From Alphaproteobacteria bacterium (GTDB lineage: Bacteria > Pseudomonadota > Alphaproteobacteria > Rickettsiales > SXRF01): DNA of 64,000 bases. The stretch lies in the NCBI GenBank assembly GCA_013288305.1, contig JABDCD010000001.1, forward strand, positions 4,923-68,922. The letters run 5' to 3'. Both the position numbers and the translations under genes were made by a program. Below the pieces are notes generated by a model. That model saw nothing but the letters and a program-made list of their open reading frames with translations, had not been told where the DNA came from and did not search any database. Below, in pieces: positions 2,771 through 55,061 of this stretch. Every line of letters begins with the position of its first letter. The first letter of the stretch is position 1.

Positions 2771-3370
2771 ATGGCTCTCCCGCAACGTTACAATATCGAT
2801 TTTGGTCAATATAATCCCGTGAAAGAGACGCTGGGCGACCTTCTACTCGTTTTCAGAGAAATGTACGAGGTTATCGAAAATTGGGATGTTATGGAAGCGA
2901 ATGCAGTGAAACAGGAAGCAATAATGCGAGATTGTGGGGCAATGGAATTTAATCCACGTCCGGGGGAGAGCATCTCCATGTTGCGCAAGCTGCAAAGTGA
3001 CCTGGTCGGTCCCAGGCATATGGATAGGTTGCAGATCAAGGAATTAGCGGGGCGCTGGGAGTCATGCCTAGATAAACTGCTCGGATTTTATCAGGGTAGA
3101 GAAAACCGTCCGGGGGGATTTGCCAATGCACAAGAGGCTGCATCCCTGTTCGATTTCTTGTGGCTTCCCGGTTCAGGGGTGCCACGTCCTGAGGAATCGC
3201 CTTTGCACCGGTTACTTGATGTTGCCTGCGAGATTCGCAATCAACAAGTGGAGTTTGACAGGCACGGAGATTGGTCATGTTCGGGGAAAACTATACGCGA
3301 ATTGCTATATGCTATTCATACCGATATAGCAGCCGATATTCCGAAAGCTAAAAAAGAGGTCACTAGATAG
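2771..3370 (+). CDS. hypothetical protein (orphan, AT-shifted)
   Basis: 199-aa ORF with no motif I recognise. G+C is lower than in the neighbours. It converges on ubiG with an 8-nt overlap. Confidence 0.5.
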   Translation: MALPQRYNIDFGQYNPVKETLGDLLLVFREMYEVIENWDVMEANAVKQEAIMRDCGAMEFNPRPGESISMLRKLQSDLVGPRHMDRLQIKELAGRWESCLDKLLGFYQGRENRPGGFANAQEAASLFDFLWLPGSGVPRPEESPLHRLLDVACEIRNQQVEFDRHGDWSCSGKTIRELLYAIHTDIAADIPKAKKEVTR

Positions 3371-5199: not shown

Positions 5200-6429
5200 A
5201 TGGCACTCATAGTTCAAAAATTCGGTGGCACCTCGGTGGCCGACATCGGGCGCATCAAAAACGCCGCGGCCAAGGTCAAAAAAGAACTCGACCTCGGCAA
5301 CCGGGTCGCCGTCGTCGTCTCGGCGATGGCGGGCGTGACCAACCAGTTGGTAAAATTTGTCGAGGAGCTGTCGCCGCTGACGACGGACGAAGCCTGGCGC
5401 GAATACGATCAGGTGGTATCGTCCGGCGAGCAGGTGACGAGCGGGCTTCTGGCGCTGGCCTTGCACGAGATGGGCATCCCGGCCTGGTCGTTCGCCGGCG
5501 GGCAGGTTCCGCTCAAGACCGACATCGTCCACGGCAAGGCACGCATCCACAGCATCGACGCCCAGGCGATCCATAAAGCGCTGGATAACGGCATGGTCGC
5601 CGTCGTCGCCGGGTTCCAGGGCATCACGCCCGACGGCCGCATGGCGACGCTGGGGCGCGGCGGCTCGGATACCTCGGCGGTGGCGTTGGCCGCGGCGCTC
5701 CATGCCGACCGCTGCGATATTTATACCGACGTCGACGGCGTCTACACCACCGACCCGCGCATCGTGCCGGGCGCGCGCAAGCTCGATAAAATCGCCTACG
5801 AGGAAATGCTGGAGATGGCCTCGCTCGGCGCCAAGGTATTGCAGACGCGCTCGGTCGAGATGGCGATGAACCACGGCGTGGTGGTGCAGGTATTGTCCAG
5901 CTTCGCCGACGCGCCGGGAACCTTATTGGTCAAGGAAGAGGAGTCTATGGAACAGCAAAAAATCACCGGCATCGCCTACAGCCGCGACGAAGCGCGCGTC
6001 ACCCTCACCGGCGTACCCGACAAGCCCGGCGTGGCGGCGGGCATTTTCGGGCCGCTGGCCGAAGCCAACATCAATGTCGATATGATCGTCCAAAACATCG
6101 ACGAGATCGGCCGCGTCACCGACATGACCTTCACCGTCGGCAAGGCCGATCTCGACCGCGCCATCGCCGCCCTCGAAAAAGCCCGCCCCGTGCTGCAATA
6201 TAAGGACCTCACCGCCGACAAAAACGTCGCCAAGATTTCGGTGGTCGGCGTCGGGATGCGCAGCCACGCCGGCGTGGCTTTAGACATGTTCAAAACGCTG
6301 GCGGAAAAAGGCATCAACATCCTGGTCATCTCGACCTCGGAAATCAAGATCAGCGTGCTGATTGCGGAGGAGTATACGGAGTTGGCCGTCCGCGCGCTGC
6401 ATCAGGCGTTTGGGCTGGAGAAGGCGTGA
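5200..6429 (+). CDS. lysC: aspartate kinase
   Basis: MALIVQKFGGTSV, GRGGSDTSAVALAAAL, DVDGVYTTDPRIV, and C-terminal ACT domains. Confidence 0.95.
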   Translation: MALIVQKFGGTSVADIGRIKNAAAKVKKELDLGNRVAVVVSAMAGVTNQLVKFVEELSPLTTDEAWREYDQVVSSGEQVTSGLLALALHEMGIPAWSFAGGQVPLKTDIVHGKARIHSIDAQAIHKALDNGMVAVVAGFQGITPDGRMATLGRGGSDTSAVALAAALHADRCDIYTDVDGVYTTDPRIVPGARKLDKIAYEEMLEMASLGAKVLQTRSVEMAMNHGVVVQVLSSFADAPGTLLVKEEESMEQQKITGIAYSRDEARVTLTGVPDKPGVAAGIFGPLAEANINVDMIVQNIDEIGRVTDMTFTVGKADLDRAIAALEKARPVLQYKDLTADKNVAKISVVGVGMRSHAGVALDMFKTLAEKGINILVISTSEIKISVLIAEEYTELAVRALHQAFGLEKA

Positions 6430-6435
6430 GGAAAC

Positions 6436-6912
6436 TTATCTCCCTTGATGTCTAAAGGGACTGGTTTTTTCCTGCCCGGTTGCCGCTCTAAGCAAAATAC
6501 CAAAACTCTGTATGGCATCAGGAGAAAGTTTTTCTGATAATTGATCGAGGATTTCTTGGGCTTTGTCCGAGCTTAGAAATTTTTTGTCCATTGTGGTATT
6601 GCGCGGAGGAGATTGTGCAGGCATTTTCAATGGATATAGTTTTTCTGACTTCAGAGCGTTCTGTATATTGAAGGACGAAAACAAGATGTCTGCTAATAGA
6701 GCGTGGATTTGATTATTGGCGGTATCCAAATTTTGCGTCAGTTTGCTGATGGTGGCAGCGAATTGCCTATAGCGTACCGCGGAGTCTTTACTTCCGCTGA
6801 GGAGGATTGGATTCTCCAAACTATGCAACAAATCATTTAAATTATAACGTCGAAGATTGTATTTTTTTCTCTTTTCATCTTCTGGGTCAACATCGGTTCT
6901 TGGGGTTGCCAT
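6436..6912 (-). CDS. hypothetical protein (orphan, AT-rich)
   Basis: 158-aa ORF in a clearly AT-rich stretch. No motif I recognise. Confidence 0.45.
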   Translation of the reverse strand: MATPRTDVDPEDEKRKKYNLRRYNLNDLLHSLENPILLSGSKDSAVRYRQFAATISKLTQNLDTANNQIHALLADILFSSFNIQNALKSEKLYPLKMPAQSPPRNTTMDKKFLSSDKAQEILDQLSEKLSPDAIQSFGILLRAATGQEKTSPFRHQGR

Positions 6913-7010
6913 CGCTGTATCTTTCCTTGAACAATTAAATCCTACCGCTAGTATAGCCTGACAATGTTACGTATTTTTTAATAAATTTCAATAAAAATAT
7001 TAACACAACT

Positions 7011-8135
7011 ATGACTAACCATTTAAATTCTCTGTGGCGGCGCGGCGCCCACTTCCTTGGCTGCCAGTACGCCATCATGGGCGGGGCGATGTCGTGGGTT
7101 TCCGAGCGCAACCTGGTGGCGGCGCTTTCCAACGCCGGGGCGTTCGGTGTGATTGCCTGTAGTTCAATGTCGCCGGAATTGCTGGATAAGGAGATTACTG
7201 AAACCAAAAAACTTCTTACTTCCCCCTCCCCCGGTCGGGGGGAGGGCCGGGGAGGGGGTGACAAGGGAAATATTACTCGTGAAGCCCCCTCCCTAACCCT
7301 CCCCCCTGCAGGGGGAGGGGACAAGGTGCCCTTCGGCGTCAACCTCATTATCATGCACCCGCAGATGGATGCGCTCATCGAAGTCTGCAAAAAGCACAAC
7401 GTCTCGCACGTCGTGCTGGCGGGCGGCATTCCCAAGGATGGCTGGATCAAGGCGATCAAGGCCTATGGGGCGAAGGTGCTGTGCTTCGCGCCATCGGCCA
7501 TCATCGGCCGCAAGCTGGTGCGCCTCGGCGCCGACGCGCTGGTGATCGAGGGCATGGAGGCGGGCGGCCATATCGGCCCGGTCTCGACCTCGGTGCTGGC
7601 GCAGGAAATCCTGCCGCACATGAAAGACGTGCCGGTGTTCATCGCCGGCGGCATCGGCCGCGGCGAGGCCATCGCCGCCTATCTCGAAATGGGCGCATCC
7701 GGCGTCCAGCTGGGCACGCGCTTTGTCTGCGCCACCGAGTGCATCGCCCACCCGAACTTCAAGGAATGCTTCATCCGCAGCCAGTCGCGCGATGCCATCC
7801 CCTCGGTGCAGATCGACCCGGATTTCCCGGTCATCCCCGTGCGCGCCATCGCCAACAAAGCCACCGACGCCTTCACCCGGATGCAGCACGAAGTCATCGC
7901 CGAATTCAAGAGCGGCAAGCTCGATAAAAAAGAAGCGCAGCTCAAGATCGAACATTTCTGGGCCGGCGCCCTGCGCAAAGCCGTCATCGACGGCGACATC
8001 GAGTACGGCTCAGTCATGGCCGGCCAGAGCGTCGGCATGGTCAGCAAAATCCAGCCGGTGAAGGAGATTCTGGAGGAACTGATCGGGCAGGCGGAGGAGT
8101 ATATTACCGGGCGAAACTTAATCCCCAAAAAGTAA
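7011..8135 (+). CDS. NAD(P)H-dependent flavin oxidoreductase / nitronate monooxygenase family (FabK-like) with an in-frame repeat insertion
   Basis: GGAMSWVSERNLVAALSNAGAFGVIA, ALVIEGMEAGGHIG and FIAGGIGRGEAIAAYLEMGASGVQLGTRF. The insertion is at 7221-7326. Confidence 0.85.
   Translation: MTNHLNSLWRRGAHFLGCQYAIMGGAMSWVSERNLVAALSNAGAFGVIACSSMSPELLDKEITETKKLLTSPSPGRGEGRGGGDKGNITREAPSLTLPPAGGGDKVPFGVNLIIMHPQMDALIEVCKKHNVSHVVLAGGIPKDGWIKAIKAYGAKVLCFAPSAIIGRKLVRLGADALVIEGMEAGGHIGPVSTSVLAQEILPHMKDVPVFIAGGIGRGEAIAAYLEMGASGVQLGTRFVCATECIAHPNFKECFIRSQSRDAIPSVQIDPDFPVIPVRAIANKATDAFTRMQHEVIAEFKSGKLDKKEAQLKIEHFWAGALRKAVIDGDIEYGSVMAGQSVGMVSKIQPVKEILEELIGQAEEYITGRNLIPKK
7221..7326. repeat. two tandem CTTGTC-(C)nTCCCC hairpin modules (family E), in frame in the NMO-like gene
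   Basis: tccccctcccccggtcggggggagggccggggagggggtgacaagg and ccccctccctaaccctcccccctgcagggggaggggacaagg. Confidence 0.85.
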
Positions 8136-9338
8136 CATTTGCCGATTGTCCGTGGCTTTTTGTCTTTTTTTCTTTTGTTGCGTTGGTTTTCTGATTGGAA
8201 GAAATGCGCGTATCATATTTTTACGCGCTTTATATCCGCCTTCTATCAGTTTGATTAAATCCATCTCTACCAATGCATTAATATCTCTTGATATGGTTTT
8301 AGGAGTTTTTTTTGCATAATCTGCAGCTAAATCCGCTGTTAGTTTACTGAGTTGTGCTTTTGGAACAGGTTTGTCAGCCTTCGATAAGGCAAGTACTAAA
8401 GTACGCCTTCTTTTACCTGAGTTAGAATTATCGTTCCGAAATTGAGTATGAACAAAATTAGTCCACGTCACGTCAATTTGTTGTTCCCGTATAACGTCTA
8501 TTTGCTCCTTTAATTGCTCAACAAATCCCGTAACTGCATATTGAATAAAAGGCAATAAATCACCCCCAGACTTACTCGCTACATCTAACTGTCTGTAATA
8601 CTCTGTTCGTGTAAGGTTATAATAATTACTCAAAAGATGGGCTGCATCAGAGGGAACTCCAGATTCCATTAAAAATTTTAGCTCTAATAATCTGGCTGTT
8701 CTTCCATTGCCATCGCCAAAGGGATGTATCCATACAAAGTAAATGTGAGCCACTATAGCCTTGATAATACCATAAACGATTTCATTTCCTGCATTGGTAG
8801 CGAAAGTAGTCCCGTTCATCCATTTGCAAAATTCATTGACCAAATAAGGGCAATCCTCTGGAGGGGGACAGCGGTACCTGCCTACAACACGCGAGTCTTT
8901 GCGAATTTCACCAGGAATTACATCTTCTCCAACCGCTAGCTCGCTAAGAATCTGGCTATTAAAATGTGCGAGTAAATCTGATGATAAAGGAACGATTTCT
9001 CCCTTTTTAATTGGCTCTAAAACTCCGCCGAACGCAGACAAAATGTTTTGTATTTCTTTTATTAGGTATTCTCTAGAACGGGGTAAATGAAGCGTTCCAT
9101 CCAACGATTTCAAAACCTCTTCTTCTGATAGAGTATTGCCTTCTATCGCAGTTGTAGCAAATGCACCTTTAGCCAGATAAAGTCTGTGCAGTTTTTCTGC
9201 CGTGTCCGGACGCAATGGAATACCGGCAATATGCTCGCATTTAGATTGAGCTTCTCCTAGGGCTAACCATAAATGTGGAGATGCAGGTTTAAGATCAATA
9301 TTGAATGTAATCCAAGGATGTGTTTTTTTATATATCAT
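8118..9338 (-). CDS. Fic family protein (AMPylase-type) with a C-terminal winged-helix-like tail
   Basis: Canonical Fic motif HPFGDGNGRTAR. An N-terminal inhibitory-helix motif, TTAIEG, fits [ST]xxxE[GN]. The gene is AT-rich. Confidence 0.88.
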   Translation of the reverse strand: MIYKKTHPWITFNIDLKPASPHLWLALGEAQSKCEHIAGIPLRPDTAEKLHRLYLAKGAFATTAIEGNTLSEEEVLKSLDGTLHLPRSREYLIKEIQNILSAFGGVLEPIKKGEIVPLSSDLLAHFNSQILSELAVGEDVIPGEIRKDSRVVGRYRCPPPEDCPYLVNEFCKWMNGTTFATNAGNEIVYGIIKAIVAHIYFVWIHPFGDGNGRTARLLELKFLMESGVPSDAAHLLSNYYNLTRTEYYRQLDVASKSGGDLLPFIQYAVTGFVEQLKEQIDVIREQQIDVTWTNFVHTQFRNDNSNSGKRRRTLVLALSKADKPVPKAQLSKLTADLAADYAKKTPKTISRDINALVEMDLIKLIEGGYKARKNMIRAFLPIRKPTQQKKKRQKATDNRQMLLFGD

Positions 9339-9516
9339 AATATATGGCCTCCTTAATGTCCGATGAAATGTCTAACACCGTTAGTCATTAATATTTTGAT
9401 ATTAAACACAAATATATATTATATAATAAAAAATGTCCGCATCGATGTCCATATAATAGTCCAATACAATATTCAAAACAAGTAATGACATTGCATATGT
9501 ACTGAAAGCGCATTGA

Positions 9517-9525
9517 TGTTATAAT
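9517..9525 (+). promoter_or_regulatory. candidate extended -10 (TGTTATAAT) upstream of ptsP
   Basis: TGnTATAAT lies 6 nt before the GTG start. I saw no clear -35. Confidence 0.3.
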
Positions 9526-9531
9526 CTTTGC

Positions 9532-11799
9532 GTGCCACGCATAAAAAACACCAAAATCCAGACCTCCTCGCCGCTGCTGTTGCTGCGGCAGATACGCGAC
9601 GTCATGGCGCAGGCGGCGGACGCGCAGGCGCGGCTCGACCAGGTGGTAACCATCATCGCCCGCGGCTTTTCCTCCGAAGTCTGCTCGGTCTATCTGCTGC
9701 GCGCCGGGGACATTCTCGAACTCTATGCCAGCCAGGGTTTGAAAAAATCATCGGTGCATTTGACGCGTTTGCAGGTTGGGCAGGGGCTGGTCGGCTCGAT
9801 TGCCGCCAGCGCCGCGCCGCTCAACCTCGCCGATGCGCAGTCGCATCCCAAATTCGAATACCGCCCGGAAACCGGCGAGGAAATTTACAACTCCTTCGTC
9901 GGTGTGCCGATCCTGCAGGGCGGCAAGGCCATCGGCGTGCTGGTCGTGCAGGGCAAGGCGGCGCGGGAATATTCGCCCGACCAGGTTGAAGTATTGCAGA
10001 CGGTAGCGATGGTGCTCTCCGAGCTGGCGATGTCCGGCCAGTTCGTCGACCGCCAGGAAATCGCGACGGCGACCGGTGGGCTGGTGGCGCAGCAGCTGGC
10101 GGGCGTCCGCCTCGCCCCGGGCATGGCCAAGGCCGTGGCCGTGCTGCATCAGCCGCAGCTGGTCATCACCCAATATGTCTCCGCCGATCCCGACCATGAA
10201 AAAGAGCGCTTCGAGAAAGCACTGCGCTCCCTGCAGGAATCGTTCGACCATTATATCCAATCTTCAGGACTTTCCGAGGACGACGAGCATCGCCAGATCA
10301 TCGAAACCTACCTACTCTTCACACAGGATCGCGGCTGGATTGCCCGCATCAACGAAGCCGTCGTCTCCGGCCTCACGGCGGAAGCGGCGGTGCGCAAAGT
10401 GCAGGAGGAACTCCAGGCGCGCATGAGCCAGATGGCCAGCCCCTACATCAAGGAACGCATCCAGGACCTCGAGGATTTATCGAACCACCTGTTGCAGGCG
10501 CTGCTGGGAAAACCCGTCGTTCCCAAGCCGCACGATCTGCCGGAAAGCTTCATCCTCGTCGCCCGCTCCATCGGCCCCGCCGAATTGCTCGATTACGATC
10601 ACAAGCGCCTCAAGGGCCTCATTCTCGAAGAAGGCTCGATCACCTCGCACACCGCGGTCATCGCCCGCGCCATGGATATTCCGGCCCTGGCCAAGGTGGA
10701 AAAAGCCACCACCGTCATCCGCCCCGGCGACACGGTGATCTTGGACGCCGAGGGCAACCAGGTCTATGTCCGCCCCAGCCCCGAGATCGAACTGGCGATG
10801 AACCGGCACATCGACCAATACGCCGTGCGCGCCGCCGAGTATGAGGGCCTGCGCGACGCCCCGGCGGTGACGCGTGATGGTGTGCGCATCTCGCTCAATG
10901 TCAATGCCGGATTATTTGTCGATAGCAAATCCGTGCTGCAGGCCGGCGTTGACGGCATCGGCCTCTACCGCACCGAACTGCCTTATATGACCTCGCCCAC
11001 TTTTCCCGACGTAGAAACCCAGGCGGCGCTCTATGCGTCGATGTACGCGCAACTGCCGGGAAAGCGCGTTATCTTCCGCAGCTTCGACATCGGCGGCGAC
11101 AAGAAAGTGCCCTATCTCCACGCCGGCGAGGAGGAAAACCCGGCCATGGGCTGGCGCGCCACCCGCATCGGCCTCGACCGCCCGGGCATCCTGCGCACGC
11201 AGTTCCGCGCCCTGATTAACGCCAGCGCCGGGCAGCCGCTCTGGGTCATGTTCCCCTTCATCGCCCAACTATCGGAATTCGATGCCGCCAAGCATTTACT
11301 GGAGCAGGAGCTGGAGACCGCCGAAACGCGCCCGTCTTCGCTCAAAGTCGGGCTGATGCTGGAGATTCCCTCGATCCTGTGGCAACTCGACGCGCTGATG
11401 CAACATGCCGATTTCGTCTCTATCGGCAGCAACGACCTAATGCAGTTTTTATTCGCCTGCGACCGCGGCGCCGCGCACATGGCCGACGCTTACGACACGC
11501 TGTCGCCGGTGATGCTGCGCGTCGTGCACGAGGTGGTAAGCAAAGCGCAGGGCCATAATGTCGAGGTCAGTTTCTGCGGCGAAATGGCGCGCCGCCCGCT
11601 CGACGCGCTGGCGCTGCTGGGGGTAGGCATCCGCAGCCTCTCGGTCTCGGCATCGGGCATCGGCCCCCTCAAGGCGATGATCCGCAGCTTGACACTGTCC
11701 GAACTTACCGATTATTTGCATTACCTGCTGCAATCCAATGAGCCGACGGTGCGCCATTGGCTGGCGGCGTATGCCAAAGATCACGGGATAGTGGTATAA
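9532..11799 (+). CDS. ptsP: phosphoenolpyruvate-protein phosphotransferase PtsP (EI-Ntr), GAF + EI domains
   Basis: N-terminal GAF region (EVCSVYLL...GLVG), EI histidine region GSITSHTAVIARA, and C-terminal SIGSNDLMQF. The start codon is GTG. Confidence 0.93.
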   Translation: MPRIKNTKIQTSSPLLLLRQIRDVMAQAADAQARLDQVVTIIARGFSSEVCSVYLLRAGDILELYASQGLKKSSVHLTRLQVGQGLVGSIAASAAPLNLADAQSHPKFEYRPETGEEIYNSFVGVPILQGGKAIGVLVVQGKAAREYSPDQVEVLQTVAMVLSELAMSGQFVDRQEIATATGGLVAQQLAGVRLAPGMAKAVAVLHQPQLVITQYVSADPDHEKERFEKALRSLQESFDHYIQSSGLSEDDEHRQIIETYLLFTQDRGWIARINEAVVSGLTAEAAVRKVQEELQARMSQMASPYIKERIQDLEDLSNHLLQALLGKPVVPKPHDLPESFILVARSIGPAELLDYDHKRLKGLILEEGSITSHTAVIARAMDIPALAKVEKATTVIRPGDTVILDAEGNQVYVRPSPEIELAMNRHIDQYAVRAAEYEGLRDAPAVTRDGVRISLNVNAGLFVDSKSVLQAGVDGIGLYRTELPYMTSPTFPDVETQAALYASMYAQLPGKRVIFRSFDIGGDKKVPYLHAGEEENPAMGWRATRIGLDRPGILRTQFRALINASAGQPLWVMFPFIAQLSEFDAAKHLLEQELETAETRPSSLKVGLMLEIPSILWQLDALMQHADFVSIGSNDLMQFLFACDRGAAHMADAYDTLSPVMLRVVHEVVSKAQGHNVEVSFCGEMARRPLDALALLGVGIRSLSVSASGIGPLKAMIRSLTLSELTDYLHYLLQSNEPTVRHWLAAYAKDHGIVV

Positions 11800-12362
11800 A
11801 TGACTGCAGAATCATACAACGACATCGGCCAACTCCTCCGCCGCGCGCGAGAGGAGCTGCGGATGCCCCTGGAGGAGGTATCGCGCGCGCTGCATATCCG
11901 TATGCGTTATCTCGACGCGCTGGAATGCGGCCGGCTCACCGAATTGCCGGGGTTGTCCTACGCTAAGGGCTACCTGCAGGCCTATGCCGCCTATGTTGGG
12001 CTGGACCGCGACGAAATCCTGCGCCGTTTCGAAGAGGTGGAAAACCTGCTGGGGCGCCGCGGCTTTTATTTCCCGCAGGTATTCCGCAAGGATAAAACGC
12101 CCAGCCGCTCTATCGTCTGGGGCGGACTGGCCGGCGCTGTGCTCGCCTATGCCTTCTGGCTGGCGGTGCTGCAGCCGCCGCAGATGGCCATCTCGGTCGT
12201 CGAGCCGTTTTCCGACAAAAAGGCCGAAGCCGCGGCGGTTTCAGCGGATGTCGCTTGCCTTAAGCCCCGGCCGCTATACTATCCGCCCTGTACGATGCCG
12301 TGGCAGCCGGGGTTCAGCCTGGTGTCGCTGCAGGCGCGGATGAAATTACCGTGGACGAAACC

Positions 12363-48456: not shown

Positions 48457-48750
48457 ATGCGCACCAATATCATCGTCAATGACCGTCTGATGAAACAGGC
48501 CATGCAGCTATCCGGTCTGCATACCAAAAAATCGGTGGTGGAGGAAAGCCTCAAGCTTTTCGTGCAAATGCAGAAGCAAAAAAAGCTTTCCGCGTGGTTC
48601 AGAATACGTGGCAGGCAAAAGAGCGGACAGCCTTTGCCACAACCAGATCGGCTTTTGGCGCTTGCCGGGTCCATTAGTGATGAGGACGCTAATGGTATGA
48701 TGCGCGTTATTTATGAAGATCGTTCTGCGGATTGGGATGCGCGTACGTGA
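48457..48750 (+). CDS. vapB: VapB-type antitoxin (type II TA) with a C-terminal extension
   Basis: MRTNIIVNDRLMKQAMQLSGLHTKKSVVEESLKLFVQMQKQ. Confidence 0.75.
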   Translation: MRTNIIVNDRLMKQAMQLSGLHTKKSVVEESLKLFVQMQKQKKLSAWFRIRGRQKSGQPLPQPDRLLALAGSISDEDANGMMRVIYEDRSADWDART

Positions 48751-49148
48751 CGGGCTGCATCCTTGATAGCGATGTGCTCATCCAGTTGCTTCGTAAAGAC
48801 GCGAAAGCTGTCGGCGATATTGCATCTATCCCCATCCCGGCGCGCCACACCACTATCATTACCTGCTCTGAATTATTGTACGGCGCCTATAATTCCGCCG
48901 CTGTGGAAAGAAATCTTGCTGTTACGCACCAGCTATTGAATGAATTAACCATCTTGCCGCTAACTTACGAATGCTGCGAACAATACGGCGCGTTAAAAGC
49001 GTTGCTTCGCAAGCGGGGCATCACCATCGGCGACAAGGACTTATTGATTGCCGCTATTGCCGTCAGCCATAATCTTCCGATTTTTACTTATAATCTGCGT
49101 GACTTTGGGCGCGTTCCCGGCTTAAAGTTGCACCCGTTATCACGCTAA
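48732..49148 (+). CDS. vapC: PIN-domain ribonuclease toxin VapC
   Basis: ILDSDVLIQLL...DLLIAAIAVSHNLPIFTYNLRDF. The start is uncertain: TTG 48732, or GTG 48747 which overlaps the vapB stop. Confidence 0.78.
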   Translation: MGCAYVTGCILDSDVLIQLLRKDAKAVGDIASIPIPARHTTIITCSELLYGAYNSAAVERNLAVTHQLLNELTILPLTYECCEQYGALKALLRKRGITIGDKDLLIAAIAVSHNLPIFTYNLRDFGRVPGLKLHPLSR

Positions 49149-49162
49149 GAGGGACATAAGCC

Positions 49163-51154
49163 ATGTTCTCTAAAATCCTCATCGCCAATCGCGGCGAAAT
49201 CGCCGTGCGCATCATGCGCACGTGCAAGAAGATGGGCATCCGCACAGTGGCGGTGTATTCTGAGGCCGACACCAACGCGCTGCATGTGCGCGAGGCTGAC
49301 GAGGCGATTTACATCGGCCCCAGCCCATCGATCAAAAGTTACCTCAACATCGACAGCCTTCTCTCCGCCATCGACCATAGCGGCGCCGAGGCGGTGCATC
49401 CCGGCTACGGATTTTTGTCGGAGAACGGCGAGTTCGCCCGCCGCCTGGAGCACGCCGGTATCACGCTGATCGGCCCCAGCGCCGAGGCCATACGCCTGAT
49501 GGGCGACAAGATCGAATCGAAAAAAATCGCCATCAAGGCTGGAGTGTCCAGCGTCCCCGGCACGCTCGACGTCGTGACCTCCGACGAAGAAGCCAAACGC
49601 ATCGTCAAGGAAATCGGCTTCCCGGTAATGATCAAAGCGGCGGCCGGCGGCGGCGGCAAGGGGATGCGCGTCGCCCGCAACGAAAAAGAATTGCATGACG
49701 GCCTCATTTCTTCCGCCTCCGAGGCAACGTCGAGCTTCAAGGATGGCCGCGTTTTCATCGAGCGCTTCTTCGAAAATCCGCGCCACATCGAAATCCAGGT
49801 GCTGGGCGACAAGCACGGCCACACGCTGTGGCTGGGCGAACGCGAATGCTCCATCCAGCGCCGCCACCAGAAGGTGATCGAGGAAGCGCCGAGCAGTTTC
49901 CTCGACGACAAAACCCGCAAGGCCATGGGCGAACAGGCCGTGTCGCTGGCCAAGGAGGTCGGCTATTATTCCGCCGGCACCGTCGAATTCATCATGGATC
50001 AGGACAAGCGCTTTTATTTCCTCGAAATGAATACGCGCCTGCAGGTCGAACACCGCGTCACCGAACTCGTCACCGGCATCGACTTGGTCGAGCAGATGAT
50101 CCGCGTCGCCGCCGGGGAGGAACTTTCCTTCACCCAGAAGGACGTCAAGCTGCACGGCTCGGCGCTGGAAGCCCGCATCTACGCCGAGGATCCGCGCCGC
50201 GCCTTCCTGCCCTCCACCGGCCGCATCACACGCTACCTGGAACCGGAAAACATGGAAAACGTGCTCATCGACACCGGCATTTACGAAGGCGGCGAAGCCA
50301 GCATGTTCTACGACCCCATGGTGGCCAAAGTCTGTTCCTACGGCGAAACGCGCGACGAGGCCATCGAGACGCTGAAGGAAGCGCTGTCGGCCTTCATCAT
50401 CGAGGGCATCTCGCATAATGCCAGCTTCCTCGAAGCCATTCTCGCCCACCCGCGCTTCGCCGCCGGCGACATCTCGACCAATTTCATCGAGCAGGAATAT
50501 CCCGGCGGCTTCATCGGCGCCGAGATGACCAGCGAAAGCACGAAAGTATTTCTCGGCACGGCGATCACCGTTTTCCTGCGCGACGCCGAGCGCGCCGCCC
50601 GCATCAGCCAGCAATTGCCCGGCCGCGAACGCGCCATCGGTGCGCACTGGGTCGCCAATGTCGACGGCGAGGATTACCCGGTCTATGTCCGCCACGACCA
50701 GGACCAGGGCTATTTCATCACCCACAACCGCAAGCTGATCTCGGTGAAAAGCGCGTGGAAGCTGGGCCGCCGCCTGTTCCAGGCCACCGTCAACGGCAAG
50801 CCGGTCAGCGTGCAGATCAAGCATCTCGAAGAGGGCTACGTGCTGACCTACGGCGGCTCCGACGTGACGGTACGCGTGCGCACGCCGCGCGTCGCCGAGC
50901 TGGCGCAGTTCATGCCCAAGCCGCAGGACCAGGGCAAAAAGAAAAACCTCGTCGCCCCCATCGCCGGCCTCATCGTCAGCATGAAGGTGAAGCAGGGCGA
51001 GCCGGTCAAAGCCGGGCAGGAGCTGGTGGTGATCGAGGCAATGAAAATGGAAAACGTCATCTACGCCGACCGCGACACCACGGTAGAAAAAATCTGCGTC
51101 GCCGACCGCGACAGCGTGCAGGTCGACCAGGTGCTGATAGAGTTCGCGGCGTGA
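49163..51154 (+). CDS. pccA: propionyl-CoA carboxylase alpha subunit (biotin carboxylase + BCCP)
   Basis: MFSKILIANRGEIAVRI, KAAAGGGGKGMR, and the biotinylation site EAMKMEN. Confidence 0.93.
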   Translation: MFSKILIANRGEIAVRIMRTCKKMGIRTVAVYSEADTNALHVREADEAIYIGPSPSIKSYLNIDSLLSAIDHSGAEAVHPGYGFLSENGEFARRLEHAGITLIGPSAEAIRLMGDKIESKKIAIKAGVSSVPGTLDVVTSDEEAKRIVKEIGFPVMIKAAAGGGGKGMRVARNEKELHDGLISSASEATSSFKDGRVFIERFFENPRHIEIQVLGDKHGHTLWLGERECSIQRRHQKVIEEAPSSFLDDKTRKAMGEQAVSLAKEVGYYSAGTVEFIMDQDKRFYFLEMNTRLQVEHRVTELVTGIDLVEQMIRVAAGEELSFTQKDVKLHGSALEARIYAEDPRRAFLPSTGRITRYLEPENMENVLIDTGIYEGGEASMFYDPMVAKVCSYGETRDEAIETLKEALSAFIIEGISHNASFLEAILAHPRFAAGDISTNFIEQEYPGGFIGAEMTSESTKVFLGTAITVFLRDAERAARISQQLPGRERAIGAHWVANVDGEDYPVYVRHDQDQGYFITHNRKLISVKSAWKLGRRLFQATVNGKPVSVQIKHLEEGYVLTYGGSDVTVRVRTPRVAELAQFMPKPQDQGKKKNLVAPIAGLIVSMKVKQGEPVKAGQELVVIEAMKMENVIYADRDTTVEKICVADRDSVQVDQVLIEFAA

Positions 51155-51157
51155 ACC

Positions 51158-52393
51158 ATGGCTGACGTTGCGGTGAAAATCGATTCTTCAACAGAGGCTC
51201 AGAATCCAGGGTCTGAATCCGAATCGCCTATCTATAGTACAGGCGTTCTGCCCTATCAGGCGCTCAAGGAGATGGTGAAGAGCGGCGAAATTAAGACGGA
51301 AATTCTTACTGAAATTATTGAAGATCAGATTCAACCCGCCAGCATCGACTTGCGATTGGGACATTTTGCCTATCCTGTAGATACCAGTTTTCTTCCGGGG
51401 TCAGGTATAAAAGTACTGGAAAAAATGCGACAACTGGATGAGCGCTTTGACGATTTTAAAATCGACCTGAGATCGGGCGCGGTTCTTGAAAGAGGAAGGG
51501 TATATGTCATTCCTCTTTTGGAAGAGGTCAATTTAAAGAGCAGTATGAAAAGTGAAATGCGGGGATTTGCCAATCCCAAAAGCTCCACGGGCAGGCTCGA
51601 TATTCTTACGCGTTTGATCACTGATGAAGGCACTAAGTTTGACCAGGTAAGAAGTGGCTACGAAGGAAAACTCTATGTTGAAGTGGCGCCACGCAGCTTC
51701 AGTATTATTGTTAAAACGGGCACCTGCCTCAACCAATTGCGATTTCGTCGTACCCGAGGTGCTGAATTACAGGCTATTACCTCGGAGAAATGGAAAAGCC
51801 TTCTCGAAAGTGGGCAAATTGCCTACACCCAAGATAACCAAAAACAGTCTAGTGAAGAGACCGGGAAGCTACGCTTTACTATTGATTTGCAAGGATCGGG
51901 GGCGGAAGGGGAGATTGTTGGATGGCGAGCCAAAAAACATGCTAAACGCATTGATCTGGCAAAAATCAACCATTACGACCCGCTCGATTTTTGGGAGCCT
52001 ATCTGCTTCCACAAAAGCGCCTCACTTATCCTCGACCCGGATGAATTCTATATTTTGATGACCAAGGAAGCCATCGCCGTGCCGCCCGATTATGCTGCCG
52101 AGATGCTGCCGTACGACACCCGCGCTGGCGAATTCCGCGTACATTACGCCGGGTTTTTCGATCCCGGCTTCGGCTGGGACGCCCTCACTGGCAAGGCGGG
52201 TAGCAGCCGCGGCGTCCTCGAAGTCCGTTCGCACGAAGTGCCGTTTTTATTGGAGCACGGCCAAACCGTTGGTTGGCTGCGCTATGAACGCATGATGGCC
52301 TGCCCGGATAAACCTTATGGTCAGGGCATTAGCTCAAATTACCAGAACCAAACGCTCAAACTCGCCAAGCAGTTCCGGGCGATGAGCGCCTAG
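51158..52393 (+). CDS. 2'-deoxycytidine 5'-triphosphate deaminase (DCD, two-domain PF06559-like) family protein
   Basis: IQPASIDLRLG, GAVLERGRVYVIPLLE, ANPKSSTGRLDILTR, and PRSFSIIVKTGTCLNQLRFRR. The gene is AT-shifted. Confidence 0.75.
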   Translation: MADVAVKIDSSTEAQNPGSESESPIYSTGVLPYQALKEMVKSGEIKTEILTEIIEDQIQPASIDLRLGHFAYPVDTSFLPGSGIKVLEKMRQLDERFDDFKIDLRSGAVLERGRVYVIPLLEEVNLKSSMKSEMRGFANPKSSTGRLDILTRLITDEGTKFDQVRSGYEGKLYVEVAPRSFSIIVKTGTCLNQLRFRRTRGAELQAITSEKWKSLLESGQIAYTQDNQKQSSEETGKLRFTIDLQGSGAEGEIVGWRAKKHAKRIDLAKINHYDPLDFWEPICFHKSASLILDPDEFYILMTKEAIAVPPDYAAEMLPYDTRAGEFRVHYAGFFDPGFGWDALTGKAGSSRGVLEVRSHEVPFLLEHGQTVGWLRYERMMACPDKPYGQGISSNYQNQTLKLAKQFRAMSA

Positions 52394-53607
52394 TGGATAC
52401 GCGCCGGCTCCGGCTTATATTCTTTTAGAATGGCGCCGTATAGCTCGCTGCCCAGTAACTCTTTCATACGCTTTGACCGCTCATATTGCCTGATCAGTTT
52501 TTCATGCCCCCTGGGATCGTTCTTGGGATTAGGAAGGTCATAGCTGGTTGCTTTTACAGTCTCCAGTTTTTCATTCAGCAATCTATCCTCCAGCGCCTTA
52601 TGGGCAAAACAAGGCTTGCCGCCGTCCCTGTCGCGCCCGCGCACGGCATCGACGAGCGCCGCCATGCTGACAGCCATGCTGACAAAAGGATCGGCATCCA
52701 CGCCGGGAAGGCGATTTTCGATACGGGTTTGATCGAACACTTCTTGCGGATGATTGGCGCCGTAGGCTTTTACGATGCGTACGGAAATGGGAAGCCTGCC
52801 GCGATTATTCTTGGCATCTTCATATCTGTTGTGACCTGTGCTGATCCCAATGCCGTTAGGTGTGGAATTATTGGCATGGATGCGCCATAGCGATTCCTCC
52901 GTTGGCAGCATTGAAATGGCTGCTTCGTTTTGCACTTCGAGCAAAGCATGGGCGCAGCGATACAGCAGATCATGATCAGTGCCGAAGACATTGCGGTTTT
53001 TATCGTCATACAGGCTGACATTGATGTGTAGCGCCGAAGTCAGGTCGCCGTAATTCTCATATTTTGTATTGGACTTTTTGGCGATCTCGCTGCCTCGATA
53101 GGGACGGACGCTGAAATTGGGCTCTATGTAAGGCGCTCTGTCATTGCTGATTTGCGTCAGGCAGGTAGTATGGAGAAGCGCATCTTTCAGCGCCTGTTTT
53201 TTAAGCAGGTGAGTAACGTGGGCTACCGCTTCGGGCCTGAAGGCCGCGCTGTTGAATCCCTGCTTTCGATCTGCCGGCTCGGCAATATTGATTTCGTATT
53301 GCTCCGGAACCATGGGCTGGCTGCGCCCCGGCAATCCAAGCCCGCCTATCGCCTCGTAACCTGTTTTTTCAAGATATTTTTTTCCATCCGCCAGTGTATC
53401 TATAAGCATTTGATTGAGACCGGGTAAATAAATCCGGCGGGCTATGGGTCTTTTATGCTCGTCTTCAGCCATGAATTCCAGCTCGATAGCCGAACGCACA
53501 TATAGGCCGCGCGCCGCCAATTCTTTCTTATATTCGCCAATGCGCTTCAGCGCTGTTTTTTGCAGCTCCGTTAAATTCGAAAAATCGATGTCGCGGGTTT
53601 TTGCCAT
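52390..53607 (-). CDS. divergent glutamine-synthetase-fold ligase (catalytic domain only)
   Basis: GS catalytic motifs appear in the expected order: IELEFMA, SALHINVSL, SVRIVKA, TRIENRLPGVDADPFV, and a C-terminal ELLGSELYGAILKEYK. No N-terminal beta-grasp domain is visible. The gene is AT-rich. Confidence 0.6.
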   Translation of the reverse strand: MAKTRDIDFSNLTELQKTALKRIGEYKKELAARGLYVRSAIELEFMAEDEHKRPIARRIYLPGLNQMLIDTLADGKKYLEKTGYEAIGGLGLPGRSQPMVPEQYEINIAEPADRKQGFNSAAFRPEAVAHVTHLLKKQALKDALLHTTCLTQISNDRAPYIEPNFSVRPYRGSEIAKKSNTKYENYGDLTSALHINVSLYDDKNRNVFGTDHDLLYRCAHALLEVQNEAAISMLPTEESLWRIHANNSTPNGIGISTGHNRYEDAKNNRGRLPISVRIVKAYGANHPQEVFDQTRIENRLPGVDADPFVSMAVSMAALVDAVRGRDRDGGKPCFAHKALEDRLLNEKLETVKATSYDLPNPKNDPRGHEKLIRQYERSKRMKELLGSELYGAILKEYKPEPARIH

Positions 53608-53767
53608 GGTATCTATGATCTTAGGCTATGATTATTAATATATCTTTTTATTCGTAAAATATATCGCCTTTTCCCCTTCCTGGCCATTTCTACTGCTCTT
53701 ATACTCATCCTTGAATGACCACCACCGCTGGCCGGAATGATTAACTAAACATTAAAAAAGTCAAAAA

Positions 53768-54205
53768 ATGTCAAGAAAATTGAGAACAAAACAGATAAAA
53801 GCGGCACGGCTGGTATTGGAAAATTACTCCGCTAATGGCATCGCGCGTGAACTTAAAATACGCCCGGAAACACTATCGCGTTGGAAAAAACTTCCCGCTT
53901 TTAAGAAAATAATAGAACAGGTTACGCAAAGTGAACTGGAGGAGGCGCGTTGTCAATTTGTGCATCTGGTCGATGCTTCGTTAGCGGCATTATGGTCGGT
54001 TGTCAAAGGGAGGCATTGCGATCCGGTTCGCCTCAAAGCCGCTTTAAGCGTGCTCAAACTGGCCGGAATCGAGCGCATTTCGGTGCCCAACGTGTCCGAA
54101 ACGGTGGATAACGCGCCCAAACAGGAGCAAAACGCGCCCGCAAGCGCGGCACCTAATGAAACGCCCGGCCAAACTCCTCCCGCAGCATCCTGTCGAATGT
54201 TGTGA
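53768..54205 (+). CDS. hypothetical protein with an N-terminal HTH-like segment
   Basis: [21 protein letters not shown] resembles a helix-turn-helix. The C-terminus is low-complexity and overlaps the lipB 3' end by about 50 nt. Confidence 0.45.
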
Positions 54206-54893
54206 GCGAAACATCGGCGCCCAGCGCCTTAAGCGACGTCACGCCCGCGTCGGCAATGCCGCAGGGGACGATGCCGCCGTAATGCGACAGGTCAGGATGG
54301 ACGTTGACCGAAATGCCATGATACGCCACCCATTTGCGCACGCGGATGCCGATGGCGGCGATTTTGGCTTCCCCAAAATCAGGTATCGGGTATCGGGCAT
54401 CGGGTATCAGTATTTTTTTTTCTGATTCCTGATTCCCGATTCCTGATTCCCGATTTACCCAAACGCCCACCCGCCCCTCGTGCGTAAACCCTTCCACGCC
54501 GAAGCGGGCAAGCGTGGCGATAATCCATTGCTCCAGCGTATGTACGTACGTACGTACGTCGCGCCCGCGCCGGTTGAGATCGAGCATGGCGTAGGCGACG
54601 CGCTGGCCGGGGCCGTGATAGGTGAATTGCCCGCCGCGGCCTGAGGGGTAAACCGGAAAGCGGGCATCGAGCAGGTCGGCGGCATTGGCGCTGGTGCCCG
54701 CCGTGTAGAGCGGCGGATGCTCCAGCAGCCACACCATCTCCGCCGCCCGCCCGGCCAGAATATCCTCGACCCGCCGCTCCATCGTTTCGACGGCAGCGGG
54801 GTAATCGACCGGCGCGGTGGATATTTTCCATTCCAATCCCCCCTCCCCTTGAGGGAGGGGGTTAGAGGGAGGGGACTTTGTTATTATATTCAT
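54153..54893 (-). CDS. lipB: octanoyltransferase LipB carrying repeat-derived insertions
   Basis: [23 protein letters not shown], and [17 protein letters not shown]. Start set at ATG 54893; TTG 54836 is an alternative. The track start 55004 would overlap the tRNA. Confidence 0.88.
54379..54453. repeat. tandem-heptamer-arm hairpin, family J (GGTATCG / GGAATCR), in frame in lipB
   Basis: tcaggtatcgggtatcgggcatcgggtatcag / T-run loop / ctgattcctgattcccgattcctgattcccga. The arms are only partly complementary. Confidence 0.75.
54838..54876. repeat. family E module (CCCCTCCCC hairpin) in the lipB 5' region
   Basis: cccccctccccttgagggagggggttagagggaggggac. Confidence 0.75.
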
Positions 54894-54976
54894 AGAAAGG
54901 AGATTTTTGTAACGCTTGCCAAAAGACGCATATTGGCCTACATAACTCGCTCTTGTCAATAAAGCCCAACGGATAT

Positions 54977-55061
54977 GCGGCCGTGGCGGAATTGGTAGAC
55001 GCACTACCTTGAGGTGGTAGCGCCGCGAGGCGTGGAAGTTCGAGTCTTCTCGGCCGCACCA
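54977..55061 (+). tRNA. tRNA-Leu (anticodon GAG), CCA encoded
   Basis: I folded the cloverleaf by hand. Acceptor GCGGCCG/CGGCCGC, anticodon stem CTACC/GGTAG with loop TTGAGGT, a long variable arm, and T-arm GGAAG TTCGAGT CTTCT. Confidence 0.9.

Follow-up and report, generated by a model that had tools for sequence, protein, structure and literature searches.

A probable variable accessory slot after pccA in an uncultured alphaproteobacterial lineage, and the rare glutamine synthetase-like protein family represented in it

Between the genes pccA and lipB of the genome considered here, a gene for a dCTP deaminase-type protein (dcd, product DCD), a gene for a glutamine synthetase (GS)-like protein and a small gene with an HTH segment follow each other in a stretch of low GC, and the question this raises is whether the three work together. 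The first-pass annotation of this DNA had raised a functional link between the deaminase and the ligase-like protein, with an anti-phage role in mind. From the ORF list of the window, by which we mean the whole 64-kb stretch analyzed, taken from a contig of 79,946 bp, and from profile, structure and neighborhood comparisons, we arrive at another answer: with a probability of roughly 0.7, the stretch is a variable accessory slot after pccA rather than a functional module, and the three genes most likely act independently. The lineage that has this slot is an uncultured alphaproteobacterial one.

Layout and composition of the region

The ORF list has three intact genes within 51158-54205. With their neighbors, they are as follows.

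vapB-vapC (PIN) pair, 48457..49148, plus strand, from Pfam VapB_antitoxin and PIN matches
pccA, 49163..51154, plus strand, from the ORF list, with homologs having biotin-carboxylase, PCC_BT and biotin_lipoyl domains
dcd, 51158..52393, plus strand, 411 aa, from Pfam, NCBIfam and PDB matches
GS-like gene, 52390..53607, minus strand, 405 aa, from Pfam Gln-synt_C and from AF2 with Foldseek
Spacer, 53608..53767, no strand, 160 bp between the divergent GS-like and HTH genes
HTH gene, 53768..54205, plus strand, 145 aa, from PHROG matches and the L171/L172 homolog
lipB, 54153..54893, minus strand, from Pfam LplA-B_cat

The first-pass annotation had the composition falling after pccA, and this is borne out: 3-kb intervals of the 64 kb average a GC of 0.570 (sd 0.025), the 3,048-bp region has 0.498 and so belongs to the lowest 1.5% of them, and the drop downstream of pccA is from about 0.61 to 0.42-0.55. 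GC3 is 0.53 in dcd, 0.57 in the GS-like gene and 0.49 in the HTH gene, as against 0.82-0.84 in pccB and pccA. The ATG of dcd at 51158 is separated by 3 nt from the pccA stop codon at 51152-51154, the final 53 nt of the HTH gene overlap the 3' end of lipB, and the palindrome CTAG at 52390-52393 does, as described earlier, supply the stop codons of both dcd and the convergent GS-like gene. The gene identities proposed at that stage, namely a two-domain DCD, a GS-fold protein without the N-terminal domain and an HTH ORF, were all correct. We take the three ORFs to be real genes and not chance ORFs, on the strength of the DCD Pfam matches, the GS-like homologs with their invariant columns, and the presence in a sister genome of an HTH homolog that is itself a called gene.

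The low-GC stretch is bordered on both sides by backbone genes. On the left is pccA, for propionyl-CoA carboxylase alpha, with homologs up to 87% identical and a GC3 of 0.84; its true relatives were found by a protein search, a scan of metagenome contigs having given matches of 58% identity at most. On the right is lipB, for octanoyltransferase, which matches Pfam LplA-B_cat at E = 1.3e-36. The long ORF of lipB extends to 55004, where it overlaps tRNA-Leu, a backbone feature present in the relative L173 as well, so that the true start is probably M38 at 54893; the homology of the L171 lipB starts at residue 57 of this long ORF. The same backbone has a second low-GC accessory insertion in the form of vapB-vapC between pccB and pccA (VapB_antitoxin E = 8e-13, PIN E = 2e-13; GC3 0.55 and 0.58). 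Sister genome L171 has a VapB-PIN pair upstream of pccA, with a VapB 90% identical over the first 48 aa and a PIN protein that gives no tblastn match to the window VapC, and L173 has a DUF3592 gene in place of vapBC. Besides vapBC, a Fic gene is another low-GC accessory gene of the window genome.

The slot in related genomes

In L171, pccA is followed by a DCD gene, by a minus-strand gene of 151 aa that stands where the window has the GS-like gene and is unrelated to it, and then by the HTH gene. L171 and a second relative, L172, have dcd directly after pccA as in the window, and an HTH homolog at the same relative position that is 43% identical by tblastn and 45% by pairwise alignment. The HTH gene is flanked in the window by the GS-like gene and lipB, and in L171 by the 151-aa ORF and pccB. 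In L173, pccA is followed by a 164-aa ORF and then by lipB, tRNA-Leu and bactofilin; all three genes are missing, hence also a DCD at the site after pccA, and the block is indeed absent from one relative. The earlier description of three non-core genes thus holds for the middle gene, which differs between the genomes and which we will call the cargo, and fails for the DCD and HTH genes, which L171 has in common with the window. The order DCD, cargo, HTH is kept in two genomes, meaning that some linkage of dcd to the slot persists. Flanking repeats were sought around the region and none were found, and no integrase gene was noticed.

The dCTP deaminase

With the NCBIfam equivalog NF005734, for which the cut-off is 283 bits, the window DCD reaches 465.6 bits, its residues 26-408 being aligned to positions 7-367 of the 368 in the model. 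Pfam DCD_N, DCD and DCD_C match at E from 1e-62 to 3e-76 (PF06559 with 207.9 bits at residues 28-199; PF22569 with 255.3 bits at residues 232-406), both the DCD_N and the DCD_C domain being found, and PDB ID: 2R9Q matches at E = 2.7e-106. There are more than 8000 homologs, of which the best ones are uniformly 67-75% identical. It is predicted from these matches to be a standard two-domain 2'-deoxycytidine 5'-triphosphate deaminase of the housekeeping type, which is the outcome that the first-pass annotation had named as speaking against its own proposal. The housekeeping status is assigned here by family membership, and the dCTP deaminase name of the family NF005734/PRK07559 itself goes back for the most part to annotation and to 2R9Q, a deposited structure. 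The match to the family and to that structure is full length, well above the curated cut-off and inclusive of both domains; the differences from the family are about 25 additional N-terminal low-complexity residues and a GC3 unusually low for the genome, with no other difference seen.

Given the 3-nt gap, dcd is probably co-transcribed with pccA. The two genes are mismatched in GC3 in the window (0.53 for dcd versus 0.84 for pccA), whereas their sister-genome counterparts are alike (0.69 and 0.71), and from this mismatch the window dcd allele may have arrived together with the cargo. The window and L171 DCD proteins are 67% identical to each other. A horizontal transfer of the DCD gene from Betaproteobacteria was considered, the best named matches being Gallionella and relatives, and was rejected: compared with one and the same set of proteins, both the window DCD and its L171 counterpart show 67-75% identity, and with the family so uniformly conserved a transfer cannot be called.

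The deaminase and the ligase-like protein as a defense pair

The idea of a two-gene nucleotide-pool-modifying system, anti-phage or similar, that would consist of DCD and the GS-like ligase on a horizontally acquired island draws on their convergent arrangement with overlapping stop codons, on the low GC3 of both genes, on the presence of vapBC 2 kb upstream, and on dCTP depletion being a known defense principle (10.1101/2021.04.26.441389). We give it almost no credence. In the defensive dCTP deaminase (Tal et al. preprint, 10.1101/2021.04.26.441389), a protein of 576 aa, a kinase domain at the N-terminus is combined with a zinc-dependent cytosine deaminase domain at the C-terminus, whereas the window protein has Dcd-type domains only, belongs to a housekeeping equivalog, and has nothing in common with it beyond the nominal substrate dCTP. 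A search of PADLOC-DB gave 0 families for the DCD, GS-like and HTH proteins at E up to 0.1. Sister genome L171 keeps its DCD beside a different gene, and the two genes do not co-occur at any other locus examined, whether the eight GS-like loci given below or the three loci of DCD homologs, L088 and L089/L090, which have no Gln-synt_C neighbor and amount to two distinct sequences, since L089 and L090 are near-identical. In relatives, the GS-like gene has the same 4-bp stop overlap with queA, which points to tight packing and not to partnership. The neighborhoods therefore speak against the functional link proposed at the outset, and the anti-phage role finds no support, PADLOC matches being absent and the DCD domains not being of the defensive architecture.

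The GS-like protein

Pfam Gln-synt_C matches the GS-like protein with 27.5 bits against a cut-off of 24, over residues 186-322 only, and Gln-synt_N, the N-terminal beta-grasp domain, is not found by Pfam. A profile search of PDB sequences aligns the protein to B. subtilis GS at E = 6e-8. The AF2 model has a pLDDT of 77 and a pTM score of 0.86, and when it is compared with the PDB by Foldseek every one of the 50 top matches listed is a glutamine synthetase (lowest E 8.5e-13, TM about 0.56), among them PDB IDs 5dm3, 4hpp and 8x6z, the last being a 1-naphthylamine GS. Scores for the NCBIfam equivalogs of type III GS and gamma-glutamylputrescine synthetase are below their thresholds (TIGR03105, 14 bits versus 469.6; NF045547, 11.6 versus 650).

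As to the active site, the first helix and the ELEF strand fall on GlnA residues from about 104 to 135, beyond the N-domain, with ELEF (residues 42-45) on PELEFF, a GlnA motif from the beginning of the catalytic domain. Farther along, TSALH194INVS aligns to GSGMHTHQS of GS, S239xxR242 to NSYKR, SVR277 to ASIR, and R295-I-E297-N-R299-LPG-D-DP to RIEVRFPDPTANP. E42, E44, R242, R277, E297 and R299 do not vary among 16 GS-like sequences, of which at least 90% keep H194 and R295. E85, E105 and E110 are candidate equivalents of GS E212/E220, placed by motif order and predicted secondary structure rather than by a computed alignment, and neither the flap Glu327 of GS nor Asp50' could be matched to a residue of the protein. 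The protein thus has in common with GlnA and with GS-like gamma-glutamyl-amine ligases the catalytic-domain fold and the ExE, H-x-N/H-x-S, SxxR, SxR and RxExR-P-D-P motifs, but it differs from GlnA in having no beta-grasp N-domain, in being only 14-18% identical, and in belonging to a rare and lineage-restricted family. Only 19 homologs were found among 5.8 billion proteins, at 31-50% identity with many invariant columns, and a family dN/dS of about 0.2 indicates purifying selection. The wider family comprises about 55 clusters at E below 1e-30, and 183 when the limit is 1e-10. GS-like domains also occur, by profile search, in proteins of 800-2860 aa without any other recognizable domain, and IMG/VR has no relative of the family.

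Real GS has its active site closed by a beta-grasp domain that belongs to the neighboring subunit. PafA/Dop and YbdK/GCL2 are carboxylate-amine ligases that have a GS-like catalytic core without the GS N-domain, and a stand-alone core of this type can take larger amine or carboxylate substrates, a concept that would apply to the GS-like protein in the same way. Since the alignable residues of the metal-, ATP- and glutamate-binding motifs of GS are kept, we infer that the protein is an active ATP-dependent carboxylate-amine ligase of the gamma-glutamyl type with an open or altered amine site. A more specific version, in which these proteins are an uncharacterized stand-alone GS catalytic-domain family whose open site joins an unusual acceptor to glutamate or some other carboxylate, is to us a slim prospect. 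One candidate acceptor in that version, suggested by the tgt/queA slot described next, is a 7-deazaguanine intermediate of the preQ1 type, at its aminomethyl group; another, for which PafA and the very large GS-domain proteins offer an analogy, is a macromolecule.

Genomic settings of the GS-like gene

At the other loci examined (L002/L010, L003, L004, L005, L006/L007, L008, L009 and JGI 3300059473), the GS-like gene is found between tgt and queA in 8/8, in every case on the strand opposite to both, and there is no DCD or HTH match near it in any of them. All eight loci come from one lineage and are alike in their wider gene order, and the TGT proteins of these genomes are only 76% identical. 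Neither tgt nor queA is present within the 64-kb window that has the window copy, and a distant GS-like relative, L174, is located between mraZ-rsmH and corA.

When L005 is compared with L008, the flanks are 85% identical and the GS-like proteins 47%, with sharp boundaries at the gene ends. A hypervariable allele under rapid divergence was considered for this and dropped in favor of paralogy: upstream of a second GS-like copy, which is divergent, L005 has a remnant of 45 codons from a copy of the L008 type, and the metagenome contig JGI 3300059473 has two GS-like copies in tandem. Tandem paralogs of the GS-like gene are thus gained and lost at a fixed tgt-queA slot.

Such a slot invites the reading that the GS-like ligase acts in queuosine/7-deazaguanine tRNA modification, where it could acylate the preQ1 aminomethyl group or modify Q, for example, and that its position by dcd is secondary. 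This would be in keeping with a tgt-queA position held in all eight loci with TGT that divergent, and with a GS family that ligates glutamate to varied amines, as the structural matches to 8x6z, 5dm3 and 4hpp recall. But the opposite strand means that the gene is not co-transcribed with tgt and queA, and inherited order explains the association in a single lineage with a common wider order. The window copy without tgt or queA and the different setting of L174 weigh against this role as well, and in the literature covered just one paper has both 'glutamine synthetase-like' and 'queuosine', each a single time and in passing. On balance, we regard it as quite improbable.

The HTH gene and the AT-rich spacer

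The HTH protein matches phrog_7344 at E = 1.3e-11 and phrog_2538 at E = 1.2e-6, its L171 homolog matches the same families, and the PHROG match covers about 100 residues in the N-terminal HTH region. Pfam HTH_Tnp_1_2 scores 27.7 bits, just below the cut-off of 27.9. We identify it as a putative terminase-small-subunit-like DNA-binding protein: it resembles the small subunit of phage terminases in that its N-terminal HTH region matches TerS profiles, but the gene stands alone, without a large terminase or other phage genes nearby. A tblastn search with the protein found no match in 50,697 phage records. We infer that the gene is either a mobile-element relic or a local regulator. The spacer at 53608-53767 has a GC of 0.35 and presumably carries the promoters of both divergent genes; it has three sigma-70-like matches directed toward the GS-like gene, promoter and terminator counts are not above shuffle expectation, and Rfam found no RNA family in the spacer, a tRNA being the only RNA found.

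The cargo and the TerS-like HTH gene might also be viewed as making up a small mobile or conflict cassette in which the HTH protein regulates and the cargo is a replaceable effector, so that the GS-like protein would be a toxin, an effector or a defense enzyme. The change of cargo between sister genomes with the divergent HTH gene kept, the low GC, the tandem duplication and differential loss of GS-like paralogs seen in the L005 remnant and the two copies of JGI 3300059473, and the GS-like domains in otherwise domain-less proteins of 800-2860 aa are all consistent with it. We nevertheless consider it unlikely, in view of the negative PADLOC result, the absence of GS-like relatives from IMG/VR and of HTH matches from the phage records, the negative outcome for flanking repeats, an integrase gene not having been noticed, the absence of the HTH partner from the eight tgt/queA loci, and a dN/dS that indicates ordinary purifying selection.

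What the slot and the family may mean

In the reading that we prefer, that of a variable accessory slot whose genes act independently, dcd would encode an ordinary two-domain dCTP deaminase feeding the dUTP/dTTP pathway. The GS-like gene would be cargo that most likely arrived by relocation or horizontal transfer, as suggested by its different slot, between tgt and queA, in every relative examined. The HTH protein would be DNA-binding and divergently transcribed from the cargo, whichever of relic or regulator it may be.

The deaminase-ligase defense pair can be dropped. As a genome feature, the region is on this reading an ordinary accessory slot, and the uncharacterized ligase family is the sole part of interest. 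What remains is a rare, lineage-restricted GS catalytic-domain family that has no N-terminal domain and yet keeps the alignable active-site motifs. GS-family enzymes have repeatedly been found to ligate glutamate to many different amines, unexpected ones among them, and so this family could reveal a new reaction.

Layout and composition of the region

An AT shift downstream of pccA with three genes, the two larger sharing their stop codons, was described in the first-pass annotation and is borne out by the ORF list, GC and GC3.

Reading frames between pccA and lipB (ORF list)
51158..52393, + strand: two-domain dCTP deaminase (DCD), 411 aa
52390..53607, - strand: glutamine-synthetase-like (GS-like) gene, convergent with DCD, 405 aa
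53768..54205, + strand: small HTH gene, 145 aa
ends at 54153, - strand: lipB

The pccA TGA is separated from the DCD ATG by 3 nt, and CTAG at 52390-52393 is common to the stop codons of the DCD and GS-like genes. GC drops across the region from ~0.61 to 0.42-0.55; the 3,048-bp region has a GC of 0.498 versus a mean of 0.570 (sd 0.025) for 3-kb windows of the 64 kb, placing it in the lowest 1.5%, with only the 5.7-11.2 kb stretch lower. GC3 is 0.53 for DCD, 0.57 for the GS-like gene and 0.49 for the HTH gene, versus 0.82-0.84 for pccB and pccA. The dcd value (0.53, 51158-52393) stands beside 0.84 for pccA, and in the sister genome L171 dcd (10989-12161) has 0.69, close to the 0.71 of its pccA; from the mismatch with pccA, the window dcd allele could have been replaced. 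The lowest-GC stretch of the window, 5700-11250 (3-kb minimum 0.467), holds a Fic/DOC-family gene (8118-9338, - strand) and a 158-aa ORF without a Pfam match (6436-6912, - strand), set among the core genes aspartokinase, NMO and PtsP-like, and looks like another accessory insertion.

The HTH ORF is missing from the recorded gene calls for the window contig. We take it to be a real gene because its homolog is conserved and called in L171 and in L172, its protein matches terminase-small-subunit families of PHROG (E = 1.3e-11), and Pfam HTH_Tnp_1_2 scores just below cut-off. Phage genes are absent from its neighborhood, and tblastn of the protein against phage records gave no match; no flanking repeats marking a mobile element were found, and no integrase gene was noticed. 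At the right border, the long lipB ORF (54153-55004) runs at its 5' end into tRNA-Leu(GAG) (54977-55061), and translation of lipB therefore probably begins at M38 (54893). Since tRNA-Leu likewise adjoins lipB in the relative L173, it belongs to the backbone and does not bound an island. A low-complexity stretch of the lipB product is encoded by two pairs of 14-nt tandem repeats that lie side by side (54378-54446).

The deaminase and its neighbors

DCD strongly matches Pfam DCD_N, DCD and DCD_C, scores 465.6 bits against a cut-off of 283 for the NCBIfam equivalog NF005734 ("2'-deoxycytidine 5'-triphosphate deaminase"), and matches the solved two-domain DCD 2R9Q with E = 2.7e-106. Its homologs number >8000, the best non-self matches being uniformly 68-75% identical, and PADLOC returned no match; on this evidence it is not a "DCD-like" effector of a new kind. 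The defensive dCTP deaminase that has been defined by experiment combines a kinase with a zinc-dependent cytosine deaminase domain (10.1101/2021.04.26.441389). The window DCD is a different protein from that enzyme and, judged by sequence, is an ordinary member of the two-domain dCTP deaminase family, and the suggestion of an anti-phage role is not supported.

Nor is the proposal that DCD and the GS-like ligase form a functional pair, as they are neighbors in no other locus examined (8 GS-like and 3 DCD loci) and do not co-occur in GS-like, DCD-homolog or pccA-relative loci. No DCD or HTH homolog is found in the eight GS-like loci between tgt and queA, and the loci read around DCD homologs (L088 and the near-identical pair L089/L090) show no GS-like neighbor. 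The best evidence on this link comes from relatives found via pccA. L171/L172, with pccA 87% and pccB 90% identical to the window, have the order pccA, DCD (67% identical), an unrelated 151-aa minus-strand gene and the HTH gene (43% identical). The L171 order would correspond to that of the window with the vapBC-to-HTH segment inverted between pccB and lipB, which would make dcd and the HTH gene older than the divergence of these two genomes, with the middle gene alone differing. L173, with pccA 84% identical, shares the backbone of ATP12, pccB, pccA, lipB, tRNA-Leu, bactofilin, M23 and rsmB, and its pccA-lipB interval has one 164-aa ORF only.

Between pccB and pccA lies a vapB-vapC (PIN) toxin-antitoxin pair (48457-49148; GC3 0.55 and 0.58). 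L171 has a VapB-PIN pair at the corresponding place, with VapB 90% identical over 48 aa and no match of its PIN protein to the window VapC; in L173 the place is occupied by a DUF3592 gene.

The GS-like protein

Pfam Gln-synt_C matches the protein weakly (27.5 bits, residues 186-322), scores against NCBIfam models all fall far short of the cut-offs, and a PDB search with the single sequence gave no match. Homologs are few: 19 in a protein search among 5.8 billion clusters (BLASTP identity 31-48%), and, in 185,579 species genomes, three relatives of full length, each carrying the label "MAG: Alphaproteobacteria bacterium". A profile against 1.84 billion representatives gave 55 matches at E <=1e-30 and 183 at E <=1e-10. 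Some profile matches place the domain in very large proteins of 800-2860 aa (P0070, P0074, P0077, P0080, P0090, P0097, P0110); in P0070, P0074, P0090, P0097 and P0110, Pfam finds no other domain but one weak ankyrin match. The AF2 model, built from a 16-sequence alignment (pLDDT 77, pTM 0.86), has glutamine synthetases for all its best solved-structure matches (lowest E 8.5e-13, TM ~0.56).

The N-terminal helix and strand ELEF (42-45) align to FGPELEFF of a true GlnA, a motif found where the catalytic domain of GS begins, and hence the ~100-residue beta-grasp domain is absent. Further along, TSALH194-I-N-V-S pairs with GlnA GSGMHTHQS, S239-L-W-R242 with NSYKR, S-V-R277 with ASIR, and R295-I-E297-N-R299-LPGVDADP with RIEVRFPDPTANP. 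E42, E44, R242, R277, E297 and R299 are invariant in the 16 sequences, and H194 and R295 are retained in >=90%. Acidic positions E85 and E110 (E or D) and invariant Y104-E105 would, by motif order and predicted secondary structure, sit where the GS HHE...QxE strands are expected. Pairwise dN/dS is ~0.2, indicating a real protein under purifying selection. In view of the GS motifs that it keeps, the protein probably acts as an ATP-dependent carboxylate-amine ligase with an amine-binding side unlike that of GS.

Genomic setting and family dynamics

In every other locus read (8/8: L002/L010, L003, L004, L005, L006/L007, L008, L009 and one JGI contig), the GS-like gene lies between tgt and queA, divergent from the former and convergent with the latter, the stops in most cases overlapping by 4 bp as they do in the window. 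This placement might suggest a queuosine-related role, which we consider improbable: the eight loci share a wider order (DUF1318, lipoprotein, YdbH-like, tgt, GS-like, queA, PPIase, ferritin), the gene is on the strand opposite to tgt/queA in all eight, the 64 kb that hold the window copy contain neither tgt nor queA, and a distant relative is located between mraZ-rsmH and corA. Inherited gene order is the likelier explanation of the association.

On both flanks, the DNA of L005 matches that of L008 at 85% identity, and their TGT and QueA proteins are 97% and 88% identical; identity between the two GS-like proteins is only 47%, and the change comes precisely at the ends of the gene. Immediately upstream of an intact and divergent second copy, L005 carries a 45-codon remnant ORF, MAKALEAELPGFTPSKLQLAAIERIREFQAELAEEYDKSRSASR* (2975-3109), consisting of the 5' end joined to the last 33 nt (11 codons) of an L008-type gene, which is evidence for tandem duplication followed by differential loss. 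One metagenome contig has two tandem copies; given the remnant and tandem copies elsewhere, hypermutation was rejected for paralogy. A 16-19-nt direct repeat, TATTTATGTG(C/G)TATAG, flanks the gene in L005 (2932-2947 and 4291-4306) and L008 (9958-9976 and 11138-11156), one copy in the spacer adjoining tgt and the other inside the queA 3' end; confined to this pair of closely related loci, it may be chance.

In a neighbor-joining tree, the window protein groups with P0002 and P0003 (44-50% identity). Because the P0002 gene occupies the tgt/queA slot, the window copy was probably relocated or acquired from a slot of that type. The region is an accessory slot abutting a housekeeping dcd, its cargo a member of a rare GS-like family that lacks the beta-grasp domain, and its interest rests wholly on this orphan, uncharacterized ligase family.
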